A stretch of DNA of 64,000 nt, taken from an uncultured Candidatus Saccharibacteria bacterium (GTDB lineage: Bacteria > Patescibacteriota > Minisyncoccia > 2-02-FULL-40-12 > GWA2-44-9). Location of the stretch: positions 8,090-72,089 of the forward strand of contig CAZENF010000002.1 in the NCBI GenBank assembly GCA_964513645.1, read 5' to 3'. The notes under the pieces are model-generated. The model searched no databases. It was given only the letters and a program-made list of their open reading frames with translations, and was not told where the DNA came from. How positions within the stretch are numbered: the stretch's first letter is position 1; each line of letters begins with the position of its first letter. Shown piece by piece: positions 3,418-54,752 of the stretch. A program made the translations under genes and the position numbers.

Positions 3418-4235
3418 GGGATTTCGTTTAATGTTTTTACTTCAAAACCTGCCGCCTGTTTATGCCCGCCGCCGCCGTATCTCTTGGCCATTTGGCCGAC
3501 ATCAACAGAACCGTCAGACCTTAATGAAACAATTACCACATCTTTATCATAACTCCAACTGATAGACATCGGCGGAAGTTTTTTATACAAAACCTCGCAA
3601 ACACCTGAAGCATAGAGATGAGGAGCATTCACCGCATATGTTCTGTGACCTTCGAACGTTACCAGACGCGCTGTGTCCTCGACTATTTCCTTCATCATCC
3701 TGTTCTCATACCTGACGATTAAGGAGCCCTGTTCTGACATATTGTTCAACTTCTTATCTGATTCCATCTCGCCGGCTAAACGGTCCCAATTTTTAAAATT
3801 TAGATCCGTAAGGTCAAGAAAGGCACAGATTTCTTTTGTGTTCTTCATTTTGAACTGAAAAAGGTCACGGTCTTCGATATATAAGCAAAGCTGCGGGATT
3901 TTTTGGTCAGGGAAAAAATATTTCCAGGCCAGAACCGCGCCCGAATGAGAATTGTCAAAAAGGGGCTTCTGGGTCATCTCGGCCGCTTCTTTTCCGGTGG
4001 CATGATGGTCAATGATAGTAACCTCCCGGTTGTTTTTTAAAATTTCTTTCAGAACCGGCAGACTGACCGCAAAATCTATCAGATATACCCGCTTGCCCAC
4101 AATGTCTCGAGGCGCGGGGTCTTGATAATGGATTGGCCGGTATTCTGCCGTATCGCCGAATTTTTTCCAGGCCACCCAGGCGGCAGTAAAACCGTCACTG
4201 CAGCCGGCATGGTATAAGATGACTGTGTTTTTCAT
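3402..4235 (-). CDS. DHH/DHHA1 family phosphoesterase (NrnA-like nanoRNase/pAp phosphatase)
   Basis: A DHH motif TIIDHH and a C-terminal DHHA1 motif GGGGH..AAG are present. I place the start at ATG 4235 (MKNTVILYHAG), 1 nt after the pgk stop; the longer ORF in the track overlaps pgk. Confidence 0.65.
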   Translation of the reverse strand: MKNTVILYHAGCSDGFTAAWVAWKKFGDTAEYRPIHYQDPAPRDIVGKRVYLIDFAVSLPVLKEILKNNREVTIIDHHATGKEAAEMTQKPLFDNSHSGAVLAWKYFFPDQKIPQLCLYIEDRDLFQFKMKNTKEICAFLDLTDLNFKNWDRLAGEMESDKKLNNMSEQGSLIVRYENRMMKEIVEDTARLVTFEGHRTYAVNAPHLYASGVCEVLYKKLPPMSISWSYDKDVVIVSLRSDGSVDVGQMAKRYGGGGHKQAAGFEVKTLNEIPWKEV

Positions 4236-8021: not shown

Positions 8022-8900
8022 ATGGATGATTTCCCTATTATATATGTAAGGCCGGGTGATAAGGATTACCCCCAACTTCTGTCAAAAATAGCCGACCCGC
8101 CACAAGGGCTTTATTGCCGCGGGAACATTAAGCTTCTGAACACCTTTTGTTTCAGTATTGTCGGCACCCGCAAAATAACTTCTTACGGCCAGGAAGCGGT
8201 TGACCATATTGTCTCCGGGCTTGCCGGGACCGGCTGGACCATCGTCAGCGGACTCGCCTTGGGAGTTGATGCGGCCGCCCACCGAGCCGCTCTCGAAAAC
8301 GGTCTGCCGACCATTGCCGTCATCGGTTCTCCGGTAGATGACGAGGGTATCGCTCCGAGAACAAATCTTAAGCTTGCCAAAGAAATACTCGAAGCCGGCG
8401 GACTTATAATTTCTGAATACGAAAAACCCAATGAAGTATTTCCGGCAAATTACGCCATCCGGGACCGGATAACCAGCGGCTTGTCCAAGGGAGTCCTGAT
8501 AATTGAAGGCGCGGAGGAAAGCGGTTCTCTGATAACCGCCAAGTCGGCCGCTGACCAGAATCGAGATGTGTTTGCGGTCCCGGGAAATATTTTTTCAAAC
8601 GTTTCAAAGGGAACTAATGCCCTAATAAAAAGCGGTGCAAAGATGGTAACTTCGGCCGAAGACATAATCGAAGAATATTCAAAAAATGCCCAGCTTAAAC
8701 TACCCGCCAAAGTTGACATATCAACAAAAGATCCGGTTGGTCAAAAAATCCTTGCTATACTTGATGAAAAGGGCGAGCTCTCGGCAGATAAAATCATCAG
8801 AGAACTCGAGATGGAGCCGTCAAAAGTAATTTCATCCCTGTCGATGCTTGAATTAAACGACCGGATAAAAAATATTAACGGAAAATATAGATCAAATTAA
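8022..8900 (+). CDS. dprA: DNA processing protein DprA/Smf
   Basis: The GLALGVDAAAHRAAL Rossmann-like DprA core is present. Confidence 0.8.
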   Translation: MDDFPIIYVRPGDKDYPQLLSKIADPPQGLYCRGNIKLLNTFCFSIVGTRKITSYGQEAVDHIVSGLAGTGWTIVSGLALGVDAAAHRAALENGLPTIAVIGSPVDDEGIAPRTNLKLAKEILEAGGLIISEYEKPNEVFPANYAIRDRITSGLSKGVLIIEGAEESGSLITAKSAADQNRDVFAVPGNIFSNVSKGTNALIKSGAKMVTSAEDIIEEYSKNAQLKLPAKVDISTKDPVGQKILAILDEKGELSADKIIRELEMEPSKVISSLSMLELNDRIKNINGKYRSN

Positions 8901-8901
8901 A

Positions 8902-10992
8902 ATGAACCTCGTCATTGTCGAATCACCAACCAAAGCCAAAACCATTTCCCGCTTCCTGGGAGGAGATTTTGTCGTGAAATCATCCTACGGTCATGTCCGC
9001 GACTTACCCAAAAAAGAACTTGGCGTTGATACTGAACACGACTTTGAACCAAAGTATGTGATTCCGACCAAAGCCCGCAAAAATGTAACCGATCTTAAAA
9101 AAACGGCCGAGAAGTCTGACACGATAATTCTCGCAACTGACGAGGACCGCGAAGGCGAATCTATCTCCTGGCATTTGGTCAAAGCTCTCGGCTTGGATGG
9201 TTCGGGAACAAAAAAAACGACCGCCAAATTAAAAAATAAAGAACCAAAAAAAATAGAACGGATAGTCTTCCACGAAATAACCAAGTCCGCCATTGAACAT
9301 GCTTTGAAAAATCCCAGGACCATCGACCAAGACCTGGTTGATGCCCAGCAGGCCAGGCGCGTACTCGACCGCTTAGTAGGTTACAAACTCTCACCTTTTC
9401 TATGGAAAAAAGTGGCCAGAGGACTTTCAGCCGGACGCGTTCAATCAGTCGCGGTCAGATTAGTGGTTGAGAGGGAGCGGGAAATAGAAAAATTCAAAGC
9501 TGATGAATATTGGACCATAACCGCCAATTTATCGGCCGGTTCGGATGCCCAGAAAATATTTCCCGCAAATCTTATAAAGATAGGCGATAAATCTCTTGAA
9601 AAATTAGATATCAAAAACCAGGCAGAGGCCGATAAGATCGTAAAAGACCTCGAAAACGCAAAATATACGGTCCAAAATGTTGAACGGAACGAGGTCAGCC
9701 GCTCACCGATGTCGCCTTTTACAACCAGCACCCTCCAACAGGATGCGGCTAAAAAACTTCACTTCTCGGCAAAACAAACAATGATGTTCGCCCAGCAATT
9801 ATACGAAGGAGTTGAACTTGGTGCCGAAGGTTCTGTCGGTCTCATCACTTATATGAGAACTGATTCGGTCAATCTTTCCGAAGAGTCACTGACAAGAGCC
9901 AAAGATTTTATCACTAAAAGTTTCGGCGCTAATTATTTTGAACAAAGACGTTTTAAGACCAAATCAAAAACCGCCCAGGAAGCTCATGAAGCGGTCAGAC
10001 CGACCGAACCGGAACGCACACCGGACAGTGTCAGAACCTATCTTTCACCCCAGCAATTCAAACTTTACGAACTTATCTGGCGCCGTTTCACAGCTTCACA
10101 GATGACTAAAGCCGTATTTGATTCGACCGCGATCGATATTGCGACCAAGAATTATACTTTCCGGGCCAACGGCCAGACGATGAAATTCGATGGATTCCTC
10201 AAAGTTTATCCCGTTAAATACGAAGAAAATGAACTGCCGGTTGTAAAAGCCGGTGAGGAACTTGAGTTCAAAGAACTCAAACCGGAACAGCATTTCACCA
10301 AACCGCCAGCCAGATTCAACGAGGCTTCTATTATCAAAACTCTCGAAAAAGAAGGTATTGGCCGGCCGTCGACTTACGCTCCGATAATTTCTACTATCGT
10401 CGCCCGGAACTATGTGAACAAAGACCGTTCACGATACTTCCATCCGACCGAAATAGGCATCATGGTCAACGATCTTTTAGTTCAGCATTTCCCGAATATC
10501 GTCGATATAAAATTCACTTCAAAAATGGAAGGTCAGCTTGATGAGATAGCGGACGGAAAAATGAAATGGACCCCGGTCATCAGCGAATTCTATGGCCCGT
10601 TTGCCGAGAATTTGAAAGCTAAATATGAAGAAGTGTCTAAAGAAGAAGTGACCAAACAGGAAGACACCGGCCTACTTTGTGAAAAGTGCGGAAGTAAAAT
10701 GATAGTCAGAATGGGCCGCTATGGTAAGTTTATCGCCTGCTCCAACTTCCCGACCTGTAAAAATATATTAAAAGAAAAGAAAGAAGGAGCCGAACCGGAA
10801 AAGACCGGCGAGAAATGCGACAAATGCGGCGAAGGAGAGATGGTCATAAGAATAGGCCGATTCGGTAAGTTTATCGCCTGCAGTCGCTATCCTAAATGCA
10901 AAAATACAAAAAAGATACCCAAGAACCCCGAAGCATCTCCGGCTGAAGAACAAAAAAGCCCTCAAATTGAAAACGAACCGGCAAAAGAGTAG
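8902..10992 (+). CDS. topA: DNA topoisomerase I with C-terminal zinc ribbons
   Basis: A TOPRIM N-terminus MNLVIVESPTKAKTI and two C-terminal CxxC...CxxC zinc fingers. Confidence 0.92.
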   Translation: MNLVIVESPTKAKTISRFLGGDFVVKSSYGHVRDLPKKELGVDTEHDFEPKYVIPTKARKNVTDLKKTAEKSDTIILATDEDREGESISWHLVKALGLDGSGTKKTTAKLKNKEPKKIERIVFHEITKSAIEHALKNPRTIDQDLVDAQQARRVLDRLVGYKLSPFLWKKVARGLSAGRVQSVAVRLVVEREREIEKFKADEYWTITANLSAGSDAQKIFPANLIKIGDKSLEKLDIKNQAEADKIVKDLENAKYTVQNVERNEVSRSPMSPFTTSTLQQDAAKKLHFSAKQTMMFAQQLYEGVELGAEGSVGLITYMRTDSVNLSEESLTRAKDFITKSFGANYFEQRRFKTKSKTAQEAHEAVRPTEPERTPDSVRTYLSPQQFKLYELIWRRFTASQMTKAVFDSTAIDIATKNYTFRANGQTMKFDGFLKVYPVKYEENELPVVKAGEELEFKELKPEQHFTKPPARFNEASIIKTLEKEGIGRPSTYAPIISTIVARNYVNKDRSRYFHPTEIGIMVNDLLVQHFPNIVDIKFTSKMEGQLDEIADGKMKWTPVISEFYGPFAENLKAKYEEVSKEEVTKQEDTGLLCEKCGSKMIVRMGRYGKFIACSNFPTCKNILKEKKEGAEPEKTGEKCDKCGEGEMVIRIGRFGKFIACSRYPKCKNTKKIPKNPEASPAEEQKSPQIENEPAKE

Positions 10993-15236: not shown

Positions 15237-16001
15237 TTAGCCTGTTAATTTAATTACCTCTTCCGCTAATCGCCGATATTCATCGGCGGCTTTTGAATTG
15301 GGACTGAACTGGATTATCGGCTTACCGTAACTTGGAGCTTCAGCCAGATCGATCGTTCTTGAGATAGATGTTTCGAACACTCTTCCAGTAAAATTCTTAT
15401 GGACCTCGTTCATTACATGGCGGTTCAATTGATTCCTCTTATCATACATTGTAAGCAATACCCCAAGTACTTGCAAATCCGGGTTGAGGCCCTGCTTTAC
15501 CAGATCAATAGCATAAACCAGTTGGCTAAGACCTTCTAAAGCATAGTACTCACACTGGACCGGTATCAGAACATGATCCGCAGCAGTTAAAGCATTTATC
15601 GTCAAAAGTCCGAGCGAGGGCGGACAGTCAATCAGAATATAGTCGTAATTCATCCTTAAAGAACCCAGGGCCTTCTTGAGGCGGTATTCCCTCTCCCCCA
15701 TCGATACAAGCTCAACCGTCGCTCCGGCAAGCGCTTGGGTCGCCGGAAGAACATCAAAACCGAAGATGGAGGTTTTCTTTATCATTGTCAGGGGGTTCTG
15801 GTCGTTAACGATCGCATGATAGACATTATCGCTCTCTAACGCTAAATTAATGCCCAAACCGCCGGTAGCGTTGGCCTGGGAGTCCATATCTACCAAAAGG
15901 ACGTATTTGCCCAAGGCAGCCAAATAAGCTCCGAGGTTAATGGCCGTGGTGGTTTTACCGACTCCGCCCTTGGCATTACAGATTGTGAGTATTCTTGCCA
16001 T
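15237..16001 (-). CDS. parA: Chromosome partitioning ATPase ParA/Soj
   Basis: The deviant Walker A KGGVGKTT is present. Confidence 0.9.
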   Translation of the reverse strand: MARILTICNAKGGVGKTTTAINLGAYLAALGKYVLLVDMDSQANATGGLGINLALESDNVYHAIVNDQNPLTMIKKTSIFGFDVLPATQALAGATVELVSMGEREYRLKKALGSLRMNYDYILIDCPPSLGLLTINALTAADHVLIPVQCEYYALEGLSQLVYAIDLVKQGLNPDLQVLGVLLTMYDKRNQLNRHVMNEVHKNFTGRVFETSISRTIDLAEAPSYGKPIIQFSPNSKAADEYRRLAEEVIKLTG

Positions 16002-16199
16002 TTATAACTTGCTGGCCGCTCCGCTAATCGCCTGGGGCGATTAAAGCGGTAAGCTCTTGGCCAATATCCAGCCCGAATCGCAACGATTCGTTGCGGGCGG
16101 GTTTCGTTAGAAGCTCCGTTCCTCCTTCACCATAGTTATACTATGGCTCAGTCCGGTACTCGCTTCTGCCTCAATCTTGGCCAAGCCAGCTGCGTTCTA
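16002..16199. repeat. MITE-like repeat element, copy A (198 bp) with imperfect terminal inverted repeats
   Basis: The left end ttataacttgctggccgct abuts the parA ATG. The right end tgcctcaatcttggccaagccagctgcgttctaa is 39/40 identical to the end of copy B at 24818-24973. Internal perfect hairpins include cgcaacg-att-cgttgcg and ccatagt-tata-actatgg. Confidence 0.55.
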
Positions 16200-16329
16200 A
16201 GTATTGATAAGTAAGTATTTTAATTTTATACTCTCCGCCCGAACTTTTCAAATCAAATAAGACTTATTTAAGAAATAAGTTCTTTATTTGAAAAAATCCG
16301 GAAAAGTGATAGAATTACAGGATATTGGG

Positions 16330-24316: not shown

Positions 24317-24817
24317 TCATTCCTTATTACTAACCCCTTCTTTCTCTCCTGCTAGTTCGCCTGAATCTTTTGCGGGAGGAGCATCATCTTTACCCGGTTC
24401 CCCTATTTCACGATAAACAGTACCTAAAACACCGTTAACAAATTTACCCGAAGACTCACCGCCGAACGATTTAGCAAGTTCTATTGCTTCATTGATCGCA
24501 ACCTTAGGCGGGACTTCTTCCCTTTTGCCGAAAAGAAGTTCATACAGACCGAGACGAAGAACATTTCTGTCGACAACCGCAACTTGATTCAAAGGCCATT
24601 GAGGGGCGGCCTTTTCAATTATCTTATCGATAGCGCCGACGTGACTGATCGTCCCTTCGATCAGCTGATTAATGAATGAGGTATCTTCCATTCCGGAAGC
24701 GAATTCTTTGATATTCCTTTCAGTGATACCGGGAAGTTCTTCCATTTTTCTGCCCCGAAAATCCCACTCATAGAGGGTTTGCATCGCAACACTTCTTGAT
24801 AAATGCCTACTAGCCAT
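24317..24817 (-). CDS. nusB: Transcription antitermination factor NusB with a C-terminal extension
   Basis: A NusB-like N-terminus ([14 protein letters not shown]) and the [10 protein letters not shown] motif. Confidence 0.85.
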
Positions 24818-24973
24818 TTATAACTTGCTGGCCGCTCTCGTTTTAAGATTTTGCAAGGACGCTCTTGACCAATATTTTCGTTAAAAGTTCCGCTTGCTCG
24901 TCATCATATTGCAATATGTTTCCTCGCAATGCTCACCTTTGCCTCAATCTTGGTCAAGCCAGCTGCGTTCTAA
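24818..24973. repeat. MITE-like repeat element, copy B (156 bp)
   Basis: It shares the 19-nt left end (abutting the nusB ATG) and the 40-nt right end with copy A. The middle has diverged and carries a degenerate cttgaccaatatt motif. Confidence 0.55.
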
Positions 24974-37856: not shown

Positions 37857-37919
37857 AATCTAATCCTGGCCTGAATCATTAAAAAAGTCAAAAACGGCTT
37901 ATGGTCACTTTTAAAGGTA

Positions 37920-37947
37920 TTTACAAAATATAAGTTTATGTTACAAT
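37920..37947 (+). promoter_or_regulatory. Sigma70-like promoter TTTACA, 16-bp spacer, TACAAT
   Basis: Direct reading. A GGAGAG ribosome-binding site lies 6 nt before ATG 37976. Confidence 0.5.
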
Positions 37948-37975: not shown

Positions 37976-38152
37976 ATGAACTACGTTGTTATTCGCCCAA
38001 ATGGATCCGAGCAAAAAAAGATTTGGTGGCCTATAGCCGTTTTTCCAACTTTAGCAGAGGTAATCGAAATCGCCCAGAAAGAATTCCCGGGAACCCCTCT
38101 CGACAAGCTGAGAATTACTGAAGCCGTAACTCTCGAACAAAAGTCGCTATAA
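37976..38152 (+). CDS. Hypothetical small protein (58 aa)
   Basis: A good promoter and ribosome-binding site, with a terminator-like hairpin at 38170-38198. Confidence 0.4.
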   Translation: MNYVVIRPNGSEQKKIWWPIAVFPTLAEVIEIAQKEFPGTPLDKLRITEAVTLEQKSL

Positions 38153-38193
38153 CCACAACTGACACTACAAGCACGGTATAAAACTGTGCTTTT

Positions 38194-38238
38194 TTATTTA
38201 ACTTCAACCCCCATTGAGCGAGCAGTACCTTCGACGAA
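38194..38238. repeat. Duplicated copy of the rplK 3' end (last 13 codons plus stop)
   Basis: The 28-bp core cccattgagcgagcagtaccttcgacga is identical at 38211-38238 and 38820-38847. The minus strand encodes [13 protein letters not shown], against the rplK end [14 protein letters not shown]. Confidence 0.7.
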
Positions 38239-38359
38239 AACCCAAGAAAACTACAAAAACACTGTTTTCTGTCTTTGTATAATATTGCCGTGGATTAAAA
38301 TAAGGTCAACAAAAAAGTGCGAGATTATCGCACTAATAATTATTTCCAAACTTTATAAA

Positions 38360-38707
38360 TTACCAAGCTCCACCTTCACAAAAAGTGTCTTCATATCTGT
38401 GATAACCGCCTTTACTATTTTGCGTTTTTATTTTTTTAAGTTCTTCTATCTTATCTGGGGTTAATCCACTATTTAGAATGATTTTTAAACTATTCCTACT
38501 AATGTCAAAGACGGATCGATCTATGCACATTTTTTGACCAAAATATGAAAGACCGTGTCTATCAAAATTATAACTGTATCCGTCCGGCCAAGGAATCACG
38601 ACAATAACTCCTGGGATGAGAATTTGTTTAACTTTTCGCTTGAAATAACATGCAGTTTCACCATCAGGGTGTACAATATAAAATGTAGCCCTGATTTTAC
38701 CAAACAT
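38360..38707 (-). CDS. Hypothetical protein of 115 aa carried on an insert between the rplK 3'-end duplicates
   Basis: It has its own promoter-like TTTGTTAGTATATAG, an AAGGAGA ribosome-binding site 7 nt from the ATG, and a downstream hairpin gtgcga-taatc-tcgcac with a T-run. The sequence (MFGKIRATFYIVHPDGETACYF...) is unrecognised. Confidence 0.45.
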   Translation of the reverse strand: MFGKIRATFYIVHPDGETACYFKRKVKQILIPGVIVVIPWPDGYSYNFDRHGLSYFGQKMCIDRSVFDISRNSLKIILNSGLTPDKIEELKKIKTQNSKGGYHRYEDTFCEGGAW

Positions 38708-38801
38708 GCCACTTCTCCTTGTTAATGAACGTGTTCTATATACTAACAAAGCATTTGACTAAATGTCAAGTGCTTTGTGTTTGAGATTATTTATCTTACT
38801 T

Positions 38802-39221
38802 TTACTTCACCTCAATCCCCATTGAGCGAGCAGTACCTTCGACGATCTTCATCGCCGCATCGACATCATTCGCATTCAAATCATTCATTTTCTTTTCGGC
38901 TATTTCTTTGACCTGGGCCTTAGTAACTTTGCCGACTTTGTCCTTATTAGGCGTTCCGGAACCCTTGTCTATTCCGGCGGCCTTGCGGAGCAAGAATGCG
39001 GCCGGAGGAGTTTTAAGTTTGAACTCAAAAGTCCTGTCTTCATAGATAGTTATTTCCACCGGCATGACTTCGCCGATATTGTTCTTGGTCGCCTCATTCA
39101 CCTGTTGCATGAACTGCTGAAGGTTTATTCCTTGAGGACCCAAAGCCTGACCGATCTTAGCCGGTTCAAGCGCTCCGCCGGTTACTTGAATTTTTACTTG
39201 TGTTTTTATTTTTTTTGCCAT
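38802..39221 (-). CDS. rplK: 50S ribosomal protein uL11
   Basis: [37 protein letters not shown]. Confidence 0.92.
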
Positions 39222-50900: not shown

Positions 50901-52161
50901 TATAAGCAGTGTTCTCAACGGTAGTAAATTCGACATAGCCGTCGCCGGAAGCGATAGTCTGGGTAGATGAGGCGCCTGCATCCCAGACATTATTTGTACC
51001 TCCGGTTTTGGTCAAAGTATTCCCGGTCACCGTTAAGGCGGTTACGTTCTGCCAAGTCGCATTGGACGGCGCACTCGTTGCCAGAGCACAGTATTGGGAA
51101 TTGGGACAAGGATTAGAAGCACCTCCGCACCATCTCAAATTAGTAGAAGCTCCCGAATCAACCGTGCAAGGACCATTTGAATAAGCTCCGGCTCCATTAG
51201 ATTGGCAGGTAATATCAGCTACCGGCGCTGGAACCAAAAGATTAAAATTAGTCTGAAAATTTACCCAGCCGGAAGATAAAGTTGTTAGGCCATTATAGAG
51301 ATAACCGGAAATATCATTATCGATGACCGGGGTTGTGTAGGGCAACTGGAAACGGACGGTAAAAACCGTAGTTCTGCTGTTTCCTGAAACAGAAGTAGTA
51401 CAAGCATCGAGATGGATGTTGGCGTCGCCATAACCTGGCTGAACCGCCGCATGGCCGCCTCCGGTACAGGCCCGGTAATCCTGATAGCCGTTCCAAGCAT
51501 CTAAATAATACCAGGTCAAATATCCCCTGTATAAAGGAGCGTTCTCACCTTGAAGATTTATAAGAACATATTCATGAGTGATATTCGCGCTCCCGGTGGA
51601 ATCGGAGCCGGTAATCGTAATATTATACTGGGTCGTATTGTCGGTCGTAACCAAAGGAGAACTGATGGTAACATTGTCTACGGTTGGGGGAGGGGCGGCG
51701 TATGCGGCCTGGGCATAATAAGCTGCCTGCCCATAATAAGTCGACTGGGCGTAGTAGGATGATTGGGAATAGCCATACGTTCCTTGGGCATAAGGATATG
51801 TTGCTTCGGCATAAGGATATGTTCCTTGGGCATAAGGATATGTTGCTTCGGCATAAGGATATGCTGCTTCGGCATAAGTTATAATACAAGATTCAAAAGG
51901 CCCGCAAGCATAAGCAGGGGCCGCACATCCGCCGCACGAATAAGTCGTCCCATAACAAGGGTCGTCGTTTCTTGTAGCACAAGAAGTACACACGTCAGAA
52001 CTATAAACCGGGTTGTCTCCGCAAGGAGGATCGTTATTACCATGACATGTGTATCTTAAAAGACACACCATTGACGAAGCGTCTTTAACGCTTAAAGACA
52101 AGCTCAGAAATATAACAGCCACAGGAACTAAGACCAAAAAAACAGCATACCGATGTTTCAT
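47971..52161 (-). CDS. Giant secreted protein of 1396 aa with a Cys-rich N-domain, Tyr-rich tandem repeats, a duplicated module and six FG-GAP/VCBS-like repeats
   Basis: N-terminal transmembrane/signal segment. A Cys-rich block DDPCYGTTYSCGGCAAPAYACGPFESC. YPYAEAT x5 and YYAQ-type repeats. A CQSNGAGAxSNGPCxVxSGxSTNLRWCG module occurs twice. Repeats DFNGDGLTDLAIF, DFTGDGKTDIGEWR, DYTGDGKADLAVWR, DYTGDGKTDMAVWRP and DYTGDGKADLAVYRP follow. Confidence 0.7.
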   Translation of the reverse strand: MKHRYAVFLVLVPVAVIFLSLSLSVKDASSMVCLLRYTCHGNNDPPCGDNPVYSSDVCTSCATRNDDPCYGTTYSCGGCAAPAYACGPFESCIITYAEAAYPYAEATYPYAQGTYPYAEATYPYAQGTYGYSQSSYYAQSTYYGQAAYYAQAAYAAPPPTVDNVTISSPLVTTDNTTQYNITITGSDSTGSANITHEYVLINLQGENAPLYRGYLTWYYLDAWNGYQDYRACTGGGHAAVQPGYGDANIHLDACTTSVSGNSRTTVFTVRFQLPYTTPVIDNDISGYLYNGLTTLSSGWVNFQTNFNLLVPAPVADITCQSNGAGAYSNGPCTVDSGASTNLRWCGGASNPCPNSQYCALATSAPSNATWQNVTALTVTGNTLTKTGGTNNVWDAGASSTQTIASGDGYVEFTTVENTAYKMGGFSSSDTTPSYVEMKYALYAAGDGHVYIIENAAFQNGGAAVGTYVAGDIFRVAIQKGVVKYFKNGMLLFTSPNLPTYPLLFDSSFYSIGATLSNVHIGTGLVSPTAANVQWQNILPSANITVGASSITKTGGVAAWDTGASSIQTISSGDGYVEFVVGDTTKYKIAGLGNGDSNQSYTDIDYGIYPNVDGNLYIFEGGSLKAGPLAAYTAGDLLRVAVEFGTVKYYQNGNLLYTSTVPPTYPLGLDTSLYDPGTMILSAKLYNGQTSGTYSTGPITTPSKTFYLTCVDPGGNSTDTAITINANAATADATCQSNGAGAFSNGPCSVNSGTSTNLRWCGTTGVNCSSVDSCTISPGPASYSLQFGVAGGRPESAEQIVDSTTLNLKAAIGSPLSGDFNGDGLTDLAIFNSATSGWTIDYSPPNGVTDVTPIPFTLAYSPYYDVPTMADFTGDGKTDIGEWRSGSGPWYVLTSESNYTSWYTVLVPPSPYISWGLGATPTFDLAVPGDYTGDGKADLAVWRSGAGQPDTGYWYVLNSDDNNKTYFTRAWGTTGDVPVQADYTGDGKTDMAVWRPSSTTWWVLTSNSNWTAGLSYTLALATATDIPVPADYTGDGKADLAVYRPSTGDWFIYTSESNYTASYNLKLGIPGDVPVPGYYHSKGKAEVAVWRPSNQKWYFINGPIVNTSLATANLIANTTYTLSCNGSAGIATDQVTVNVAVPTPSVSNMTVTVNNGYYCSAGVHATVSGIYTDPGSLNAINYQAMIDNDLVSDPNVASASMNPEWESGTVPVAITSGSTFSSSTSNCPVNNSTNVTLNPTDTRPQTTCQMVWNTTYTAWGRVQNSSGVWSPWVKMSTYINGVNPPASQASWTTPVHAFPQTAFTYSPASPVSGSPVTFTDSTVFAPSSSGKTWSWNFGTGVPTPAGTGTQGPYSVVFTGNGSFPVSLTATDNAGSCTYQNNLYIGQKLPQWREVAPY

Positions 52162-53411: not shown

Positions 53412-54752
53412 TCAAGGTATCGGCGGCCTCTGGCCTCTAAGAATGGAGTCGACGAGGTAGACGAAACCTTTGCCGATAAGGACGATTATAAACCCGATAA
53501 GAGCCCAGAAGAGGATATTCTTGGCCTTTTGGATCTCACCAGGGTTACCTCTCGAAAAGACGAACCTTATGCCGGCGTATAGGATAAGGATGACTATTAA
53601 TGAACCTGCGATGTTTAATATCCAATTGGAGATGAGGGTTATTAGTCCAAAGATATCATAAGGCTGGCCGTAGAGAGGATTTACTATCCTCCAGGGGATG
53701 CTGACGGGTTGGCCGGGGTTGATAGGGCCCGGACCATTATTACAAGCACTGCTACCTGTCTGGCAAATGGTAACATTGGCGGACTGGGTTATGGTATAGT
53801 CGGGCCACAAAGCCCCCCCGTCACATTCTATCTTTGCGTAGTAATATTTAGTCCCGGTCGATTGGGGAGGATAAAAAGTAAAATTAGCACTTTCGTTTAA
53901 GTTCACTAATTGTTGAGTATTATCGAAATTAGCTACCCGCCGATAAATGAGAGGAACACCATTATCGTCAAAAATTGACCACAAAACATCTGTTGGCGGA
54001 TTACCAAAGGTGCTGTTGCACTTACCCCAGTCTATCAGTAAGGCCGGATAGACGTTTATACCGACTGTGGCATTTAGATTATCTCCGGAATTAGCTTGTT
54101 TTGGTTGAATATCAAATGTGACATCGACTCCAGGAATGGCTTGTGGGTTGGGAGTTGAGGTGGGGGGAATAGGCGTTGGGGTGGTATATGTTGCTTGAGC
54201 ATAATAGGCTGATTGGGCATAGTAGGATGATTGAGAATAGCCCGGGCCATATGATGCTTGGGCATAGTAGGCAGCTTGGGCATAGTAGGCAGCTTGGGCA
54301 TAGTAGGCAGCTTGGGCATAGTAAGTCGATTGACCGTAGTATGCGGACTGGCCATAATAGGATGACTGACCGTAGTATGTTGATTGGGCATAGTAAGATG
54401 CCTGACTATAGTAAGACGCTTGAGCATAGTAGCTTGACTCTGAATAATACGCCGCCTCTGAATACGCGGCAACGCAACTATAAAAAGGTCCACAGGATCT
54501 TCCGGCTGAACATCCACCGCAGGTATAGGTTGCACCGCCACAGGGATCATCTGTTCTTTGAACGCATGTCCCGCTGCAAGCTGACATGACCGGACAATCA
54601 CCACAAAAACCGGTTCCAGGCCCGCAGTTAGGAGAACATTGGTAGCCAGTAATGCAGGAGGTCTGGGCAGAAACATACCCGCTAAAATACAAAAACGCCA
54701 GGATTACCAAGATAAAGGTTAAGATCGTTGTGAAAAGATATTTTTGTCTCAT
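53412..54752 (-). CDS. Secreted Cys-rich / Tyr-repeat protein with a C-terminal two-helix hairpin resembling VirB2/TrbC-type pilins
   Basis: The N-terminal domain is paralogous to the 1396-aa protein (DDPCGGATYTCGGCSAGRSCGPFYSC). It carries (S/A)YYAQ x~14 repeats. The C-terminus GLITLISNWILNIAGSLIVILILYAGIRFVFSRGNPGEIQKAKNILFWALIGFIIVLIG has two transmembrane helices separated by a short charged loop. Confidence 0.55.
   Translation of the reverse strand: MRQKYLFTTILTFILVILAFLYFSGYVSAQTSCITGYQCSPNCGPGTGFCGDCPVMSACSGTCVQRTDDPCGGATYTCGGCSAGRSCGPFYSCVAAYSEAAYYSESSYYAQASYYSQASYYAQSTYYGQSSYYGQSAYYGQSTYYAQAAYYAQAAYYAQAAYYAQASYGPGYSQSSYYAQSAYYAQATYTTPTPIPPTSTPNPQAIPGVDVTFDIQPKQANSGDNLNATVGINVYPALLIDWGKCNSTFGNPPTDVLWSIFDDNGVPLIYRRVANFDNTQQLVNLNESANFTFYPPQSTGTKYYYAKIECDGGALWPDYTITQSANVTICQTGSSACNNGPGPINPGQPVSIPWRIVNPLYGQPYDIFGLITLISNWILNIAGSLIVILILYAGIRFVFSRGNPGEIQKAKNILFWALIGFIIVLIGKGFVYLVDSILRGQRPPIP

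Follow-up and report, generated by a model that had tools for sequence, protein, structure and literature searches.

Among the systems in which a gene end is duplicated or displaced, four are close enough to compare with the locus described here. In Escherichia coli, e14 and phage 21 insert into icd and leave the icdC pseudogene (PMC13626634). Streptococcal ICEs and IMEs target ribosomal protein genes, where tandem arrays (accretion) and decayed, integrase-less remnants occur; rplK is not among the targets reported in the accessible part of that survey (PMC5357655). The remaining two are the Rhs, CDI and Vibrio T6SS arrays and the integron cassettes. In this work, we analyzed a DNA stretch of 64,000 nucleotides (the window), within which the end of rplK is present twice, with a small expression unit between the copies. 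On balance, we consider the repeat to be a scar of recombination between strains in a hypervariable intergenic slot, and not the footprint of a self-mobile element.

Anatomy of the repeat and of the DNA between its copies

An earlier note on this DNA had reported a repeat of about 45 bp of the rplK terminus with a 28-bp perfect core. Both are present: the direct repeat measures 46 nt (42/46 identical, start-to-start spacing 608 nt), its longest exact run is 29 nt, and the 28-nt core has two exact matches (38210-38237 and 38818-38845), a result seen in 0/100 dinucleotide shuffles. The location given by the note was right, its positions being off by 1-2 nt and the spacer measuring 562 rather than 563 bp. 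The features are as follows, from rplK to the deaminase gene.

38802-39221, minus: rplK (uL11), 139 aa, intact (Pfam Ribosomal_L11_N, E 5e-19; Ribosomal_L11, E 3e-32; ORF list)
38800-38845, minus: repeat copy A, the working rplK terminus; exact 29-nt run at 38817-38845
38715-38801, minus: leader with a hairpin (38778-38746, -15.9 kcal/mol), an embedded promoter-like site and a ribosome-binding site
38769-38740, minus: promoter-like TTGACA-18-TAGTAT with an upstream TG, within the leader
38720-38714, minus: ribosome-binding site AAGGAGA, six nt ahead of the ATG at 38707
38360-38707, minus: 115-aa ORFan including stop (coding 38707-38363; ORF list; best coding frame of six)
38310-38334, minus: intrinsic terminator of the 115-aa ORF (7-bp stem, 5-nt loop, T-run; stem 38334-38316, then TTTTTTG)
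38279-38322, minus: slot-end motif, 44 nt, dCMP-deaminase-promoter-like TTGACC-17-AATATT; also upstream of the L093 deaminase gene, inverted in the L103 slot
38238-38278, minus: putative and weak 5′ relic of a second-type dCMP-deaminase gene, ending at the joint ...TTCTTGGGTTT|TCGTCGAAGG (38238|38237)
38192-38237, minus: repeat copy B, an orphaned, untranslated rplK terminus (last 13 codons); exact 29-nt run at 38209-38237
38169-38201, plus: terminator of the convergent 58-aa ORF (9-bp stem and T-run)
37976-38152, plus: 58-aa ORFan with promoter-like site 37920-37947 (10/12, with TG) and ribosome-binding site GGGAGAG; best coding frame of six
37857-37895, minus: second deaminase-promoter-like region, directly upstream of the working dCMP-deaminase gene; colinear with L093
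37440-37856, minus: dCMP deaminase, 138 aa, conserved downstream border of the variable slot (Pfam dCMP_cyt_deam_1, E 5e-19; synteny)

The last 13 rplK codons and the stop fall inside copy A, and rplK is preserved, as the note had proposed, because the upstream module brings its own copy of the terminus. The note was equally right that the downstream copy encodes the terminal rplK residues on the minus strand; there, an in-frame stop lies 5 codons upstream of VEGT and a start codon is absent. Beyond the exact run, similarity extends only towards the 3′ end of the gene, with none on the 5′ side, and the four mismatches all lie in the last 17 nt, against none in the preceding 29 nt (Fisher p=0.015). 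Three of these differences are synonymous and one exchanges Ile and Val, without any frameshift, and the nonfunctional copy B is 91% identical to the working tail. Direct inspection of the core revealed no evident dyad symmetry. The same sample has also been assembled independently, and the resulting Logan contig L001 (SRR12313479) matches the window at 100% identity along 1747 nt, including both copies and the joint. As its k-mers (k=31) are longer than the exact run of 29 nt, the repeat does not stem from a collapse during assembly.

Every part of the expression unit claimed for the spacer was recovered, namely the promoter-like site with its hairpin leader, the ribosome-binding site, the 115-aa ORF and the terminator. 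The GC content of the insert is 0.33-0.35, compared with 0.40-0.47 nearby, and the GC3 of the ORF is 0.25, compared with 0.40-0.52 in neighboring genes. The 115-aa protein probably owes its expression to a promoter of its own as well as to read-through from rplK. It had been described as lacking a recognizable family, and comparison with Pfam, PHROGs, PADLOC, NCBIfam and the sequences of the PDB likewise gave no family or match. The protein is a singleton: apart from itself, neither word-indexed searching of 5.8 billion clusters nor exhaustive searching of 1.84 billion representatives with HMMER recovered a true homologue; two further weak matches were dismissed as spurious, being short alignments to repeats in giant proteins. 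An AlphaFold 2 model built without an alignment was unusable (pLDDT 39). A search for known RNA families (Rfam) was negative for the window and for five related loci.

Two regions of the locus resemble a deaminase promoter. Both 38322-38279 and 37895-37857 align with the deaminase promoter region of the relative L093 (scores 23-24 and 21.5, respectively), and 0 of 300-500 shuffles were as good; aligned with each other, the two copies scored 13.5, which 12/300 shuffles equaled and is not significant. The window has a single occurrence of the 44-nt motif, which is otherwise confined to the slots downstream of rplK in L093 and L103, while 757 kb of non-clade DNA gave 2 matches at the laxer threshold of 17. 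Its inverted orientation in L103 raises the separate point that it may be a movable regulatory motif and not a marker of synteny. The putative deaminase relic reaches p of about 0.005-0.016 against L095 only, other relatives being not significant. On the far side of the joint, the T-run of the 58-aa ORF terminator is complementary to copy B at its AAATAAAA end, a layout as expected for a bidirectional terminator formerly shared with rplK; the 58-aa ORF is also a singleton.

The window carries two alternative versions of the slot in tandem, each with an rplK tail first and a deaminase-promoter-like element last. Module A (38845-38238) consists of rplK tail A, the hairpin/promoter leader, the 115-aa ORFan, its terminator, the deaminase-promoter-like motif and possibly a deaminase 5′ stub, and module B (38237-37857) of rplK tail B, the bidirectional terminator, the convergent 58-aa ORFan and the working deaminase promoter.

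The slot behind rplK in related genomes

The host is an L1-less, Yanofskybacteria-like Parcubacterium. The earlier note had remarked on the absence of the expected neighbor rplA, and this gene indeed does not adjoin rplK, nor did an L1 query find anything in the 64-kb window. Since none of the related genomes examined has rplA behind rplK, its absence is a trait of the lineage and not a result of the insertion; CPR bacteria are often without L1, according to the accessible portion of the literature.

The locus runs in the order rplK, variable slot, dCMP deaminase, thymidylate kinase, ThyX and then gatB. The slot is hypervariable, as 13 relatives with L11 proteins 74-89% identical have unrelated slot sequences of 76-1384 nt. 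The leader behind tail A is colinear with L093 (75.6% over 516 nt, reaching 87 nt past the stop) and is conserved in L093 and L180, each time ahead of a different, unrelated ORF; these two relatives, whose NusG proteins are 93.4% and 92.3% identical, have module-A-type tails and leaders. L093 and L094 are identical for 549 nt and then split right after ...ATGGG inside the rplK tail, and L181 and L182, contigs from two samples, both stop at ...GCCCGCTCT. Strain-level polymorphism begins within the rplK tail in other genomes as well.

An empty site or a single-module relative of the host species was found in none of the collections searched, the closest rplK being 81% identical at the DNA level. 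The clusters of L11, the deaminase and the ORFans are singletons, a hypothetical L11 ending in ...GVEVK is missing from a collection of 15 billion proteins, and the 29-nt core is absent from metagenome contigs, as is a 24-nt part of it from viral contigs. Ungapped and gapped scans of ~170 rplK loci detected no comparable distant repeat and no cargo-bearing tail duplication, for which reason a conserved regulatory repeat was rejected. The unrelated, high-GC L167 has a cargo-less tandem of the rplK tail (38/41 aligned nt identical), the copy lying ~35 nt past the stop. Two weak, proximal possible tail relics in L099 and L105 reach significance only in a search restricted to the first 150 nt (p<=0.004 in 3 loci, versus 1 in a control segment); none was found in L180, L183 or L093.

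Origin of the duplicated gene end

The insertion-type rearrangement at the rplK 3′ end proposed in the earlier note holds, but its autonomous or mobile, homing-type character does not. The insert encodes only the 115-aa ORFan and has no nuclease or recombinase domain; Pfam recognized no recombinase among the 30 other ORFs of the window (64 kb of the 283-kb contig); and no second copy of the cassette appeared in any collection searched. Nor does the insert look like DNA of a foreign element: it shares homology at its distal end with the promoter region of the dCMP-deaminase gene in a relative, and therefore resembles a piece of this chromosomal locus as it exists in another strain. Homology to the locus in relatives is found at the ends of both modules, and the old tail B is kept, untranslated, directly downstream of a module A that has its own tail.

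According to the recombination reading, two closely related strains would have had identical rplK bodies but differing versions of tail plus slot. DNA of one strain would have recombined into the other by one crossover in identical flanking sequence, with an illegitimate joint at 38238|38237 at the other end, so that one module came to lie beside the other instead of replacing it, rplK now using tail A and tail B being left as an untranslated orphan. The pathway may have been homology-facilitated illegitimate recombination, plausibly following natural DNA uptake; in this regard, dprA adjoins topA in the window (8022-10992), and DprA loads RecA onto imported single-stranded DNA. The same pathway has been proposed for displaced modules in Vibrio T6SS arrays (PMC5361080). 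As the tails differ only by synonymous or Ile/Val changes and without a frameshift, they appear to have diverged as working gene ends in separate strains, and the merger would therefore be recent. We infer the parental alleles rather than having seen them, since no single-module relative is present in any collection. As to direction, the cues conflict: codon preference (GAA/GTT/AAA vs GAG/GTG/AAG) makes tail B native-like, whereas the leader synteny with L093 and L180 points to module-A-type tails.

A 29-nt exact run followed by a diverged gene end is, on the other hand, the classic attL/attR signature of insertion by an integrase. A tyrosine or serine integrase could have inserted a small element, with an attP mimicking the rplK terminus, at an attB within the final 45 nt of the gene, copy A being attL (the element-encoded end) and copy B attR (the original end), and the element would now be integrase-less, either as a decayed island or as a cis-mobilizable unit served by an integrase in trans. 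Several observations are in line with this possibility: (i) the direct repeat has similarity only towards the 3′ end, as with e14 in icd/icdC, (ii) ICEs and IMEs show the same pattern at the 3′ ends of rplL, rpsI and rpmG in the accessible part of their description, (iii) the GC content of the insert is low, (iv) breakpoints at the same codons recur in L093 and L094, and (v) L099 and L105 may contain decayed tail copies. Against it, besides the lack of an integrase in the insert and among the 30 ORFs, no integrase-bearing element occupies the site in ~20 related loci, neither related elements nor the same att core were found at this target elsewhere (metagenome, viral, phage and plasmid collections; ~170 rplK loci), no phage, plasmid or viral contig matched the insert, the core lacks evident dyad symmetry, and homology of the distal end to a chromosomal deaminase promoter is unexpected for an element arm. 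We regard integration as unlikely. Were site-specific excision to occur, the circular junction would read ...CTTGGGTTT + core + ATTGAGGTG and the empty site ...GATGAAGA + core + GTTGAAGTT; rplK joined to tail B, the empty site, would begin as GATGAAGA + core + GTTGAAGTTAAATAA, and a circle or tandem would give CTTGGGTTT + core + ATTGAGGTGAAGTAA. Two other types of element were rejected: an insertion sequence or MITE, as no inverted repeats were found at the insert ends, the repeat is 46 nt long and imperfect and no transposase is present in the insert or among the 30 window ORFs; and an integron cassette, as the only 3′ structure is the 7-bp-stem terminator with its T-run and an integrase was not found among the window ORFs.

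It is also tempting to speculate, although we think it a long shot, that the last rplK codons and the leader form a docking platform in L1-less Parcubacteria, on which integrase-less ORFan cassettes are stacked by a trans-acting recombinase. Such a platform would be integron-like but anchored in a ribosomal protein gene, recombination taking place at the end of that gene; in this case, the window would represent the first array of two cassettes, and the L093/L094 fork, the L181/L182 ends and the faint relics of L099/L105 would be further traces.

An in-situ tandem duplication of the segment from the rplK tail to the deaminase start, followed by divergence of the copies and replacement of their contents, would be expected to produce the tail-content-promoter layout twice, and L167 demonstrates that rplK tails can occur in tandem. 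Still, the contents of the two copies show no relationship to each other and lie on opposite strands, the promoter copies are not significantly alike, and the synonymous or conservative changes of a 91% identical nonfunctional tail are not expected of neutral decay, all of which makes this origin very improbable. An assembly chimera of the locus versions of two co-occurring strains is extremely improbable: the source is a metagenome-assembled genome, and the Logan contigs L012 and L001 from the same sample break inside rplK, but L001 crosses both copies and the joint, real k-mers longer than the exact run tie each copy to its own flanks, and the joint sequence is unique. Finally, we give scarcely any credence to a free-standing homing-endonuclease-type gene copied into the rplK end by double-strand-break repair, in spite of its small, self-contained expression unit of atypical composition at a highly conserved gene, as the 115-aa protein has no LAGLIDADG, GIY-YIG, HNH, His-Cys or PD-(D/E)XK nuclease match in Pfam, PHROGs, NCBIfam or PDB and no homologue among 1.84 billion cluster representatives, whereas homing genes exist in many copies, and homing via break repair does not duplicate its target.

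Significance and comparison with known systems

The locus provides a clean, dated example of how new small genes can be added beside an essential, highly expressed gene of a CPR bacterium without damaging it, the added DNA bringing a spare copy of the gene end. The usual place of rplA appears in this L1-less lineage as a hotspot of strain-level gene turnover, whose conserved leader would express whichever gene lands behind it. As CPR bacteria are uncultured, scars of this type belong to the few direct traces of how they recombine and of the origin of their many ORFans. This significance is limited in that duplication of a target end on insertion is well known, a single instance with cargo was found and the cargo has no assignable function.

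As in the icd locus occupied by e14 or phage 21, the insert supplies a new 3′ end, the essential gene stays intact, the original end is orphaned at the far side, and most differences between the two ends are synonymous or conservative (PMC13626634). However, e14, a 15-kb prophage, encodes an integrase and excises upon SOS induction, unlike the insert described here (0.6 kb, recombinase absent), whose far end resembles chromosomal DNA of the same locus in relatives. The target, the 3′ end of a ribosomal protein gene flanked by direct repeats, is shared with the streptococcal ICEs and IMEs of rplL, rpsI, rpmG and rpmE; these elements, as far as the accessible part of the survey describes them, have tyrosine or serine integrases and mobilization genes, none of which is present here, and the host here belongs to the CPR (PMC5357655). 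With integron cassettes, the locus has in common small single-ORF units behind a conserved leader or promoter, with cargo that differs between genomes. In contrast to them, it showed no IntI, attI or folded site of attC type; its 3′ hairpin is that of an ordinary terminator, and what is repeated is the end of a gene and not an attC. In the Rhs, CDI and Vibrio T6SS effector-immunity arrays, as in our preferred explanation, a module enters through homology in a conserved upstream gene, an integrase is not involved, and the old 3′ piece is pushed downstream as an orphan together with its companion gene (PMC5361080). Whereas the tips of those arrays are polymorphic toxins whose orphan immunity genes are kept by selection, the duplicated tip here is the invariant end of L11, a ribosomal protein, and two ORFans make up the cargo.

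The duplicated rplK terminus and its setting

The end of rplK is present twice in the window, and the features of the locus are the following.

38802-39221, minus strand: rplK, last in the order gyrB, secE, nusG, rplK
38800-38845: copy A, the rplK end itself (tail A)
38192-38237: copy B, the downstream copy of that end (tail B)
between the copies: promoter-like TTGACA-18-TAGTAT, embedded in a hairpin
6 nt before the ATG of the 115-aa ORF (ORF115, minus strand): ribosome-binding site AAGGAGA
after ORF115, between the copies: canonical terminator
order after rplK: ORF115, a convergent 58-aa ORF (plus strand), dCMP deaminase, thymidylate kinase, thyX, gatB

The two ends form a direct repeat of 46 nt with 42 of 46 positions identical, including an exact run of 29 nt. 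An earlier note on this DNA had reported such a repeat with coordinates off by 1-2 nt; the repeat itself is real, and the 28-nt core named there occurs exactly twice in the 64 kb, a number reached in none of 100 shuffles. Copy A is the real rplK end, and copy B, which has an in-frame stop five codons upstream and lacks a start codon, is therefore an orphan fragment. Assembly collapse was ruled out: both copies lie within 1747 nt over which a Logan contig of SRR12313479 is 100% identical, and k=31 is longer than the exact run.

The 562 bp separating the copies do hold, as had been claimed, a self-contained expression unit with an ORFan, from promoter-like site to terminator. ORF115 lies in the frame with the best coding score of the six (GC3 0.25), and it shares with the 58-aa ORF the possession of a promoter-like site, a ribosome-binding site, a terminator and the best coding score in its own frame. 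As placed, ORF115 could be transcribed from the promoter-like site before it as well as by read-through out of the rplK operon. Neither protein had a homologue or family in any library searched; the 115-aa protein is a singleton among 1.84 billion representatives, and its AlphaFold model was unusable.

By NusG, which belongs to a cluster at 90% identity with Candidatus Yanofskybacteria, Taylorbacteria and Paceibacterota as its named members, the host is a Parcubacterium of the CPR. The absence of rplA had been noted beside the insertion, to which it proves unrelated: all relatives fetched have deoxynucleotide genes and gatB behind rplK, and not rplA, an L1 query found no match in the window, and L1 is often absent from CPR bacteria (10.1101/2022.01.07.475337), so that the missing rplA is a lineage trait.

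Two slot versions in tandem

Aligned with L093, one of the metagenome contigs carrying an rplK locus (L-numbers), the window matches for 87 nt beyond the rplK stop, through the hairpin and promoter to the ribosome-binding site (75.6% over 516 nt); the same leader is found in L180, and the ORF that follows it differs in the window, L093 and L180. Two further segments align with the sequence that precedes the L093 deaminase gene: 38322-38279, past the terminator of ORF115 (score 23-24, none of 300-500 shuffles as good), and 37895-37857 (score 21.5, 0 of 300), which lies directly upstream of the window's own deaminase and within a 441-nt colinear match to L093. The 44-nt motif at 38322-38279 occurs once in the window and elsewhere only in the rplK-downstream slots (from the rplK stop to the next conserved gene) of L093 and, inverted, L103; as a control, 757 kb of DNA from outside the clade gave 2 matches with the threshold relaxed to 17. 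In L103 this deaminase-promoter-like motif (3481-3518) lies 58 nt past the rplK stop and points back at rplK. Given the homology of both module ends to the L093 locus, we read the region as two modules.

38845-38238: module A, rplK tail at the start, deaminase-promoter-like element at the end
38237-37857: module B, rplK tail at the start, deaminase-promoter-like element at the end

The last 41 nt of module A share TTCTTGGGTT with L095 (p about 0.005-0.016; other relatives not significant), a hint only that they may be a stub of the 5' end of a second-type deaminase. Tail B ends in AAATAAAA, and the complement of this sequence is the T-run in the convergent 58-aa ORF's terminator. A bidirectional terminator that had formerly served rplK too would naturally have this layout, so module B likewise looks like a once-native arrangement.

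The slot in relatives

In the relatives compared (NusG 86-94% and L11 74-89% identical to those of the window), the slot holds the following.

L095, L101, L014: 76-126 nt; in L095 and L101 essentially empty, a second-type deaminase coming directly next
L002, 7141-7746: 606 nt, non-coding
L100, 3421-3929: 509 nt, non-coding
L093: 88-aa membrane-like ORF
L183: 113-aa ORF
JGI 3300071358: 132-aa ORF, opposite strand
L180: signal-peptide-like ORF
L013: 1.4 kb, including a dCTP-deaminase-like gene

The slot is hypervariable: when 13 slots were compared all against all by BLAST, they had almost no sequence in common. Forks at strain level occur as well: L093 and L094, from two samples, are identical over 549 nt and fork directly after ...TCCATGGG, within the last five rplK codons; L096 and L097 fork right behind the terminator hairpin, and L181 and L182, again from two samples, both stop at ...GCCCGCTCT.

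The slots of L002 and L100 are comparatively GC-rich (0.45-0.49), mutually unrelated and devoid of a convincing ORF, with no Rfam match even at E<=0.01. Further on, the rplK-to-gatB interval (L002, L013, L093, L095, L099-L106) is a mosaic of deoxynucleotide genes, with two types of dCMP deaminase that share only 28-34% identity, ThyX in some loci and ThyA plus DHFR in others, a dCTP-deaminase-like gene in one, and a thymidylate kinase only 31-46% identical across loci, whereas the flanking gatB and nusG reach 60-93%. The ThyX called in L093 (5379-6995) has 538 aa and that of the window 302, an excess that may be an insertion or an intein, and a patatin gene lies between thyX and gatB.

Other rplK ends also show peculiarities. 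In L096 (1499-2005), the near-identical sister of L097, AAA replaces the stop TAA and extends the product to 168 aa through the terminator hairpin. In L099 (2375-2540; Ga0209542_10009741), a stretch of about 170 nt that spans the rplK end and the sequence behind it has five occurrences of CTCAATGGG or the complementary CCCATTGAG. One inverted occurrence base-pairs with the coding tail, so that the final five codons and the stop sit within a hairpin (111-nt fold, -41 kcal/mol, z=-4.0), and the downstream terminator is made of the same motif. The unrelated high-GC genome of L167 (1860-1990; Ga0307405_10087098) has a clean rplK-tail tandem in which 38 of 41 aligned nt agree and the three that differ are all synonymous; the copies have no cargo between them, and an apparent rplA start follows.

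Elsewhere, L002 78-1031 contains a LAGLIDADG ORF (242 aa) with a group I intron (RF00028, 57.8 bits) behind it; in several Yanofskybacteria contigs the two come immediately after the IMP dehydrogenase gene. Within the window, a leader of about 165-207 nt is repeated at 15994-16200 and 24810-24973, directly upstream of two unrelated minus-strand genes (parA/soj-like, 15237-16001; nusB-like, 24317-24817), with blocks of 28 nt (96%) over the start codon and 42 nt (90%) at the distal end, and matches no Rfam family. Long 18- and 21-nt tandem-repeat arrays lie inside large minus-strand ORFs (51682-51878, 54168-54467), one of which (53412-54752) has a T4SS-pilin-like C-terminus.

Origin of the tandem

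The two tails differ at 4 of the last 17 nt and at 0 of the 29 before (Fisher p=0.015). Three differences are synonymous third-position changes and the fourth is ATT/GTT (Ile/Val), with neither frameshift nor stop across 14 codons; by calculation from the codon table, a random single-base change there would be synonymous in only about 22% of cases, so the tails diverged in separate lineages, each while still serving as a functional gene end. Some synonymous positions within the identical 29 nt vary among relatives, and the sharp switch from identity to divergence resembles the L093/L094 fork, from which the parents were probably conspecific strains with the same rplK body and different versions of tail plus slot. 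We infer that the merger was recent.

The tandem could have arisen from a linear piece of one strain's locus by homology-facilitated illegitimate recombination, that is, one homologous crossover in identical flanking sequence and one illegitimate joint, at 38238|38237. With module A as the incoming one, the crossover would lie in the rplK body; with module B, in the deaminase gene and those downstream of it. DprA, which loads RecA on imported single-stranded DNA, is encoded in the window beside topoisomerase I, so that DNA uptake by transformation is plausible. Tail B uses genome-preferred codons (GAA, GTT, AAA) and tail A non-preferred ones, which together with the low GC of module A suggest that A is foreign; however, A-type tails with the same leader occur in L093 and L180, among the closest relatives by NusG.

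Integration at an att site in the rplK 3' end would explain the exact core with similarity continuing only toward the gene end, the pattern that integrases leave at gene 3' ends. In L099 and L105, faint relics of the tail close behind rplK hint at repeated events; they reach p about 0.001 only when no more than the first 150 nt are searched, and p<=0.004 is reached by 3 of 156 loci against 1 in a control segment. However, the insert lacks a recombinase and none was recognised in 30 window ORFs, no integrase-bearing element sat at the rplK site in about 20 related loci, neither core nor insert recurred in metagenome, viral, phage or plasmid collections, and the far end of the insert is homologous to relatives' chromosomal DNA. 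We consider such integration unlikely, the weight left to it reflecting those relics and a screen that covered 64 of 283 kb. In-situ tandem duplication followed by decay is argued against by tail differences acquired in separate lineages and by two promoter copies without significant mutual similarity. A homing endonuclease was rejected, as homing does not duplicate its target and the singleton ORF115 product matches no nuclease family. Of the earlier proposal, an insertion that preserves rplK through a spare terminus is upheld, and an autonomous mobile or homing element is not.

Recombination between strains, as preferred here, has precedents: homology-facilitated illegitimate recombination is described for naturally transformable bacteria and has been proposed for displaced modules in Vibrio T6SS arrays and in Rhs/CDI loci (PMC5361080; PMC3240628). 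The integrase-made counterpart is e14 in icd, leaving the orphan icdC (PMC13626634); streptococcal ICEs and IMEs lie in rplL, rpsI and rpmG, with tandem and decayed elements among them (PMC5357655). These att-site systems have an exact core and gene-endward similarity, as at rplK in the window. The event adds a new case to a known kind, target-end duplication or 3'-end displacement. What is unusual is where it lies: in a gene for a ribosomal protein, in a CPR bacterium that lacks L1, and at a hotspot of strain-level variation that has a conserved leader.
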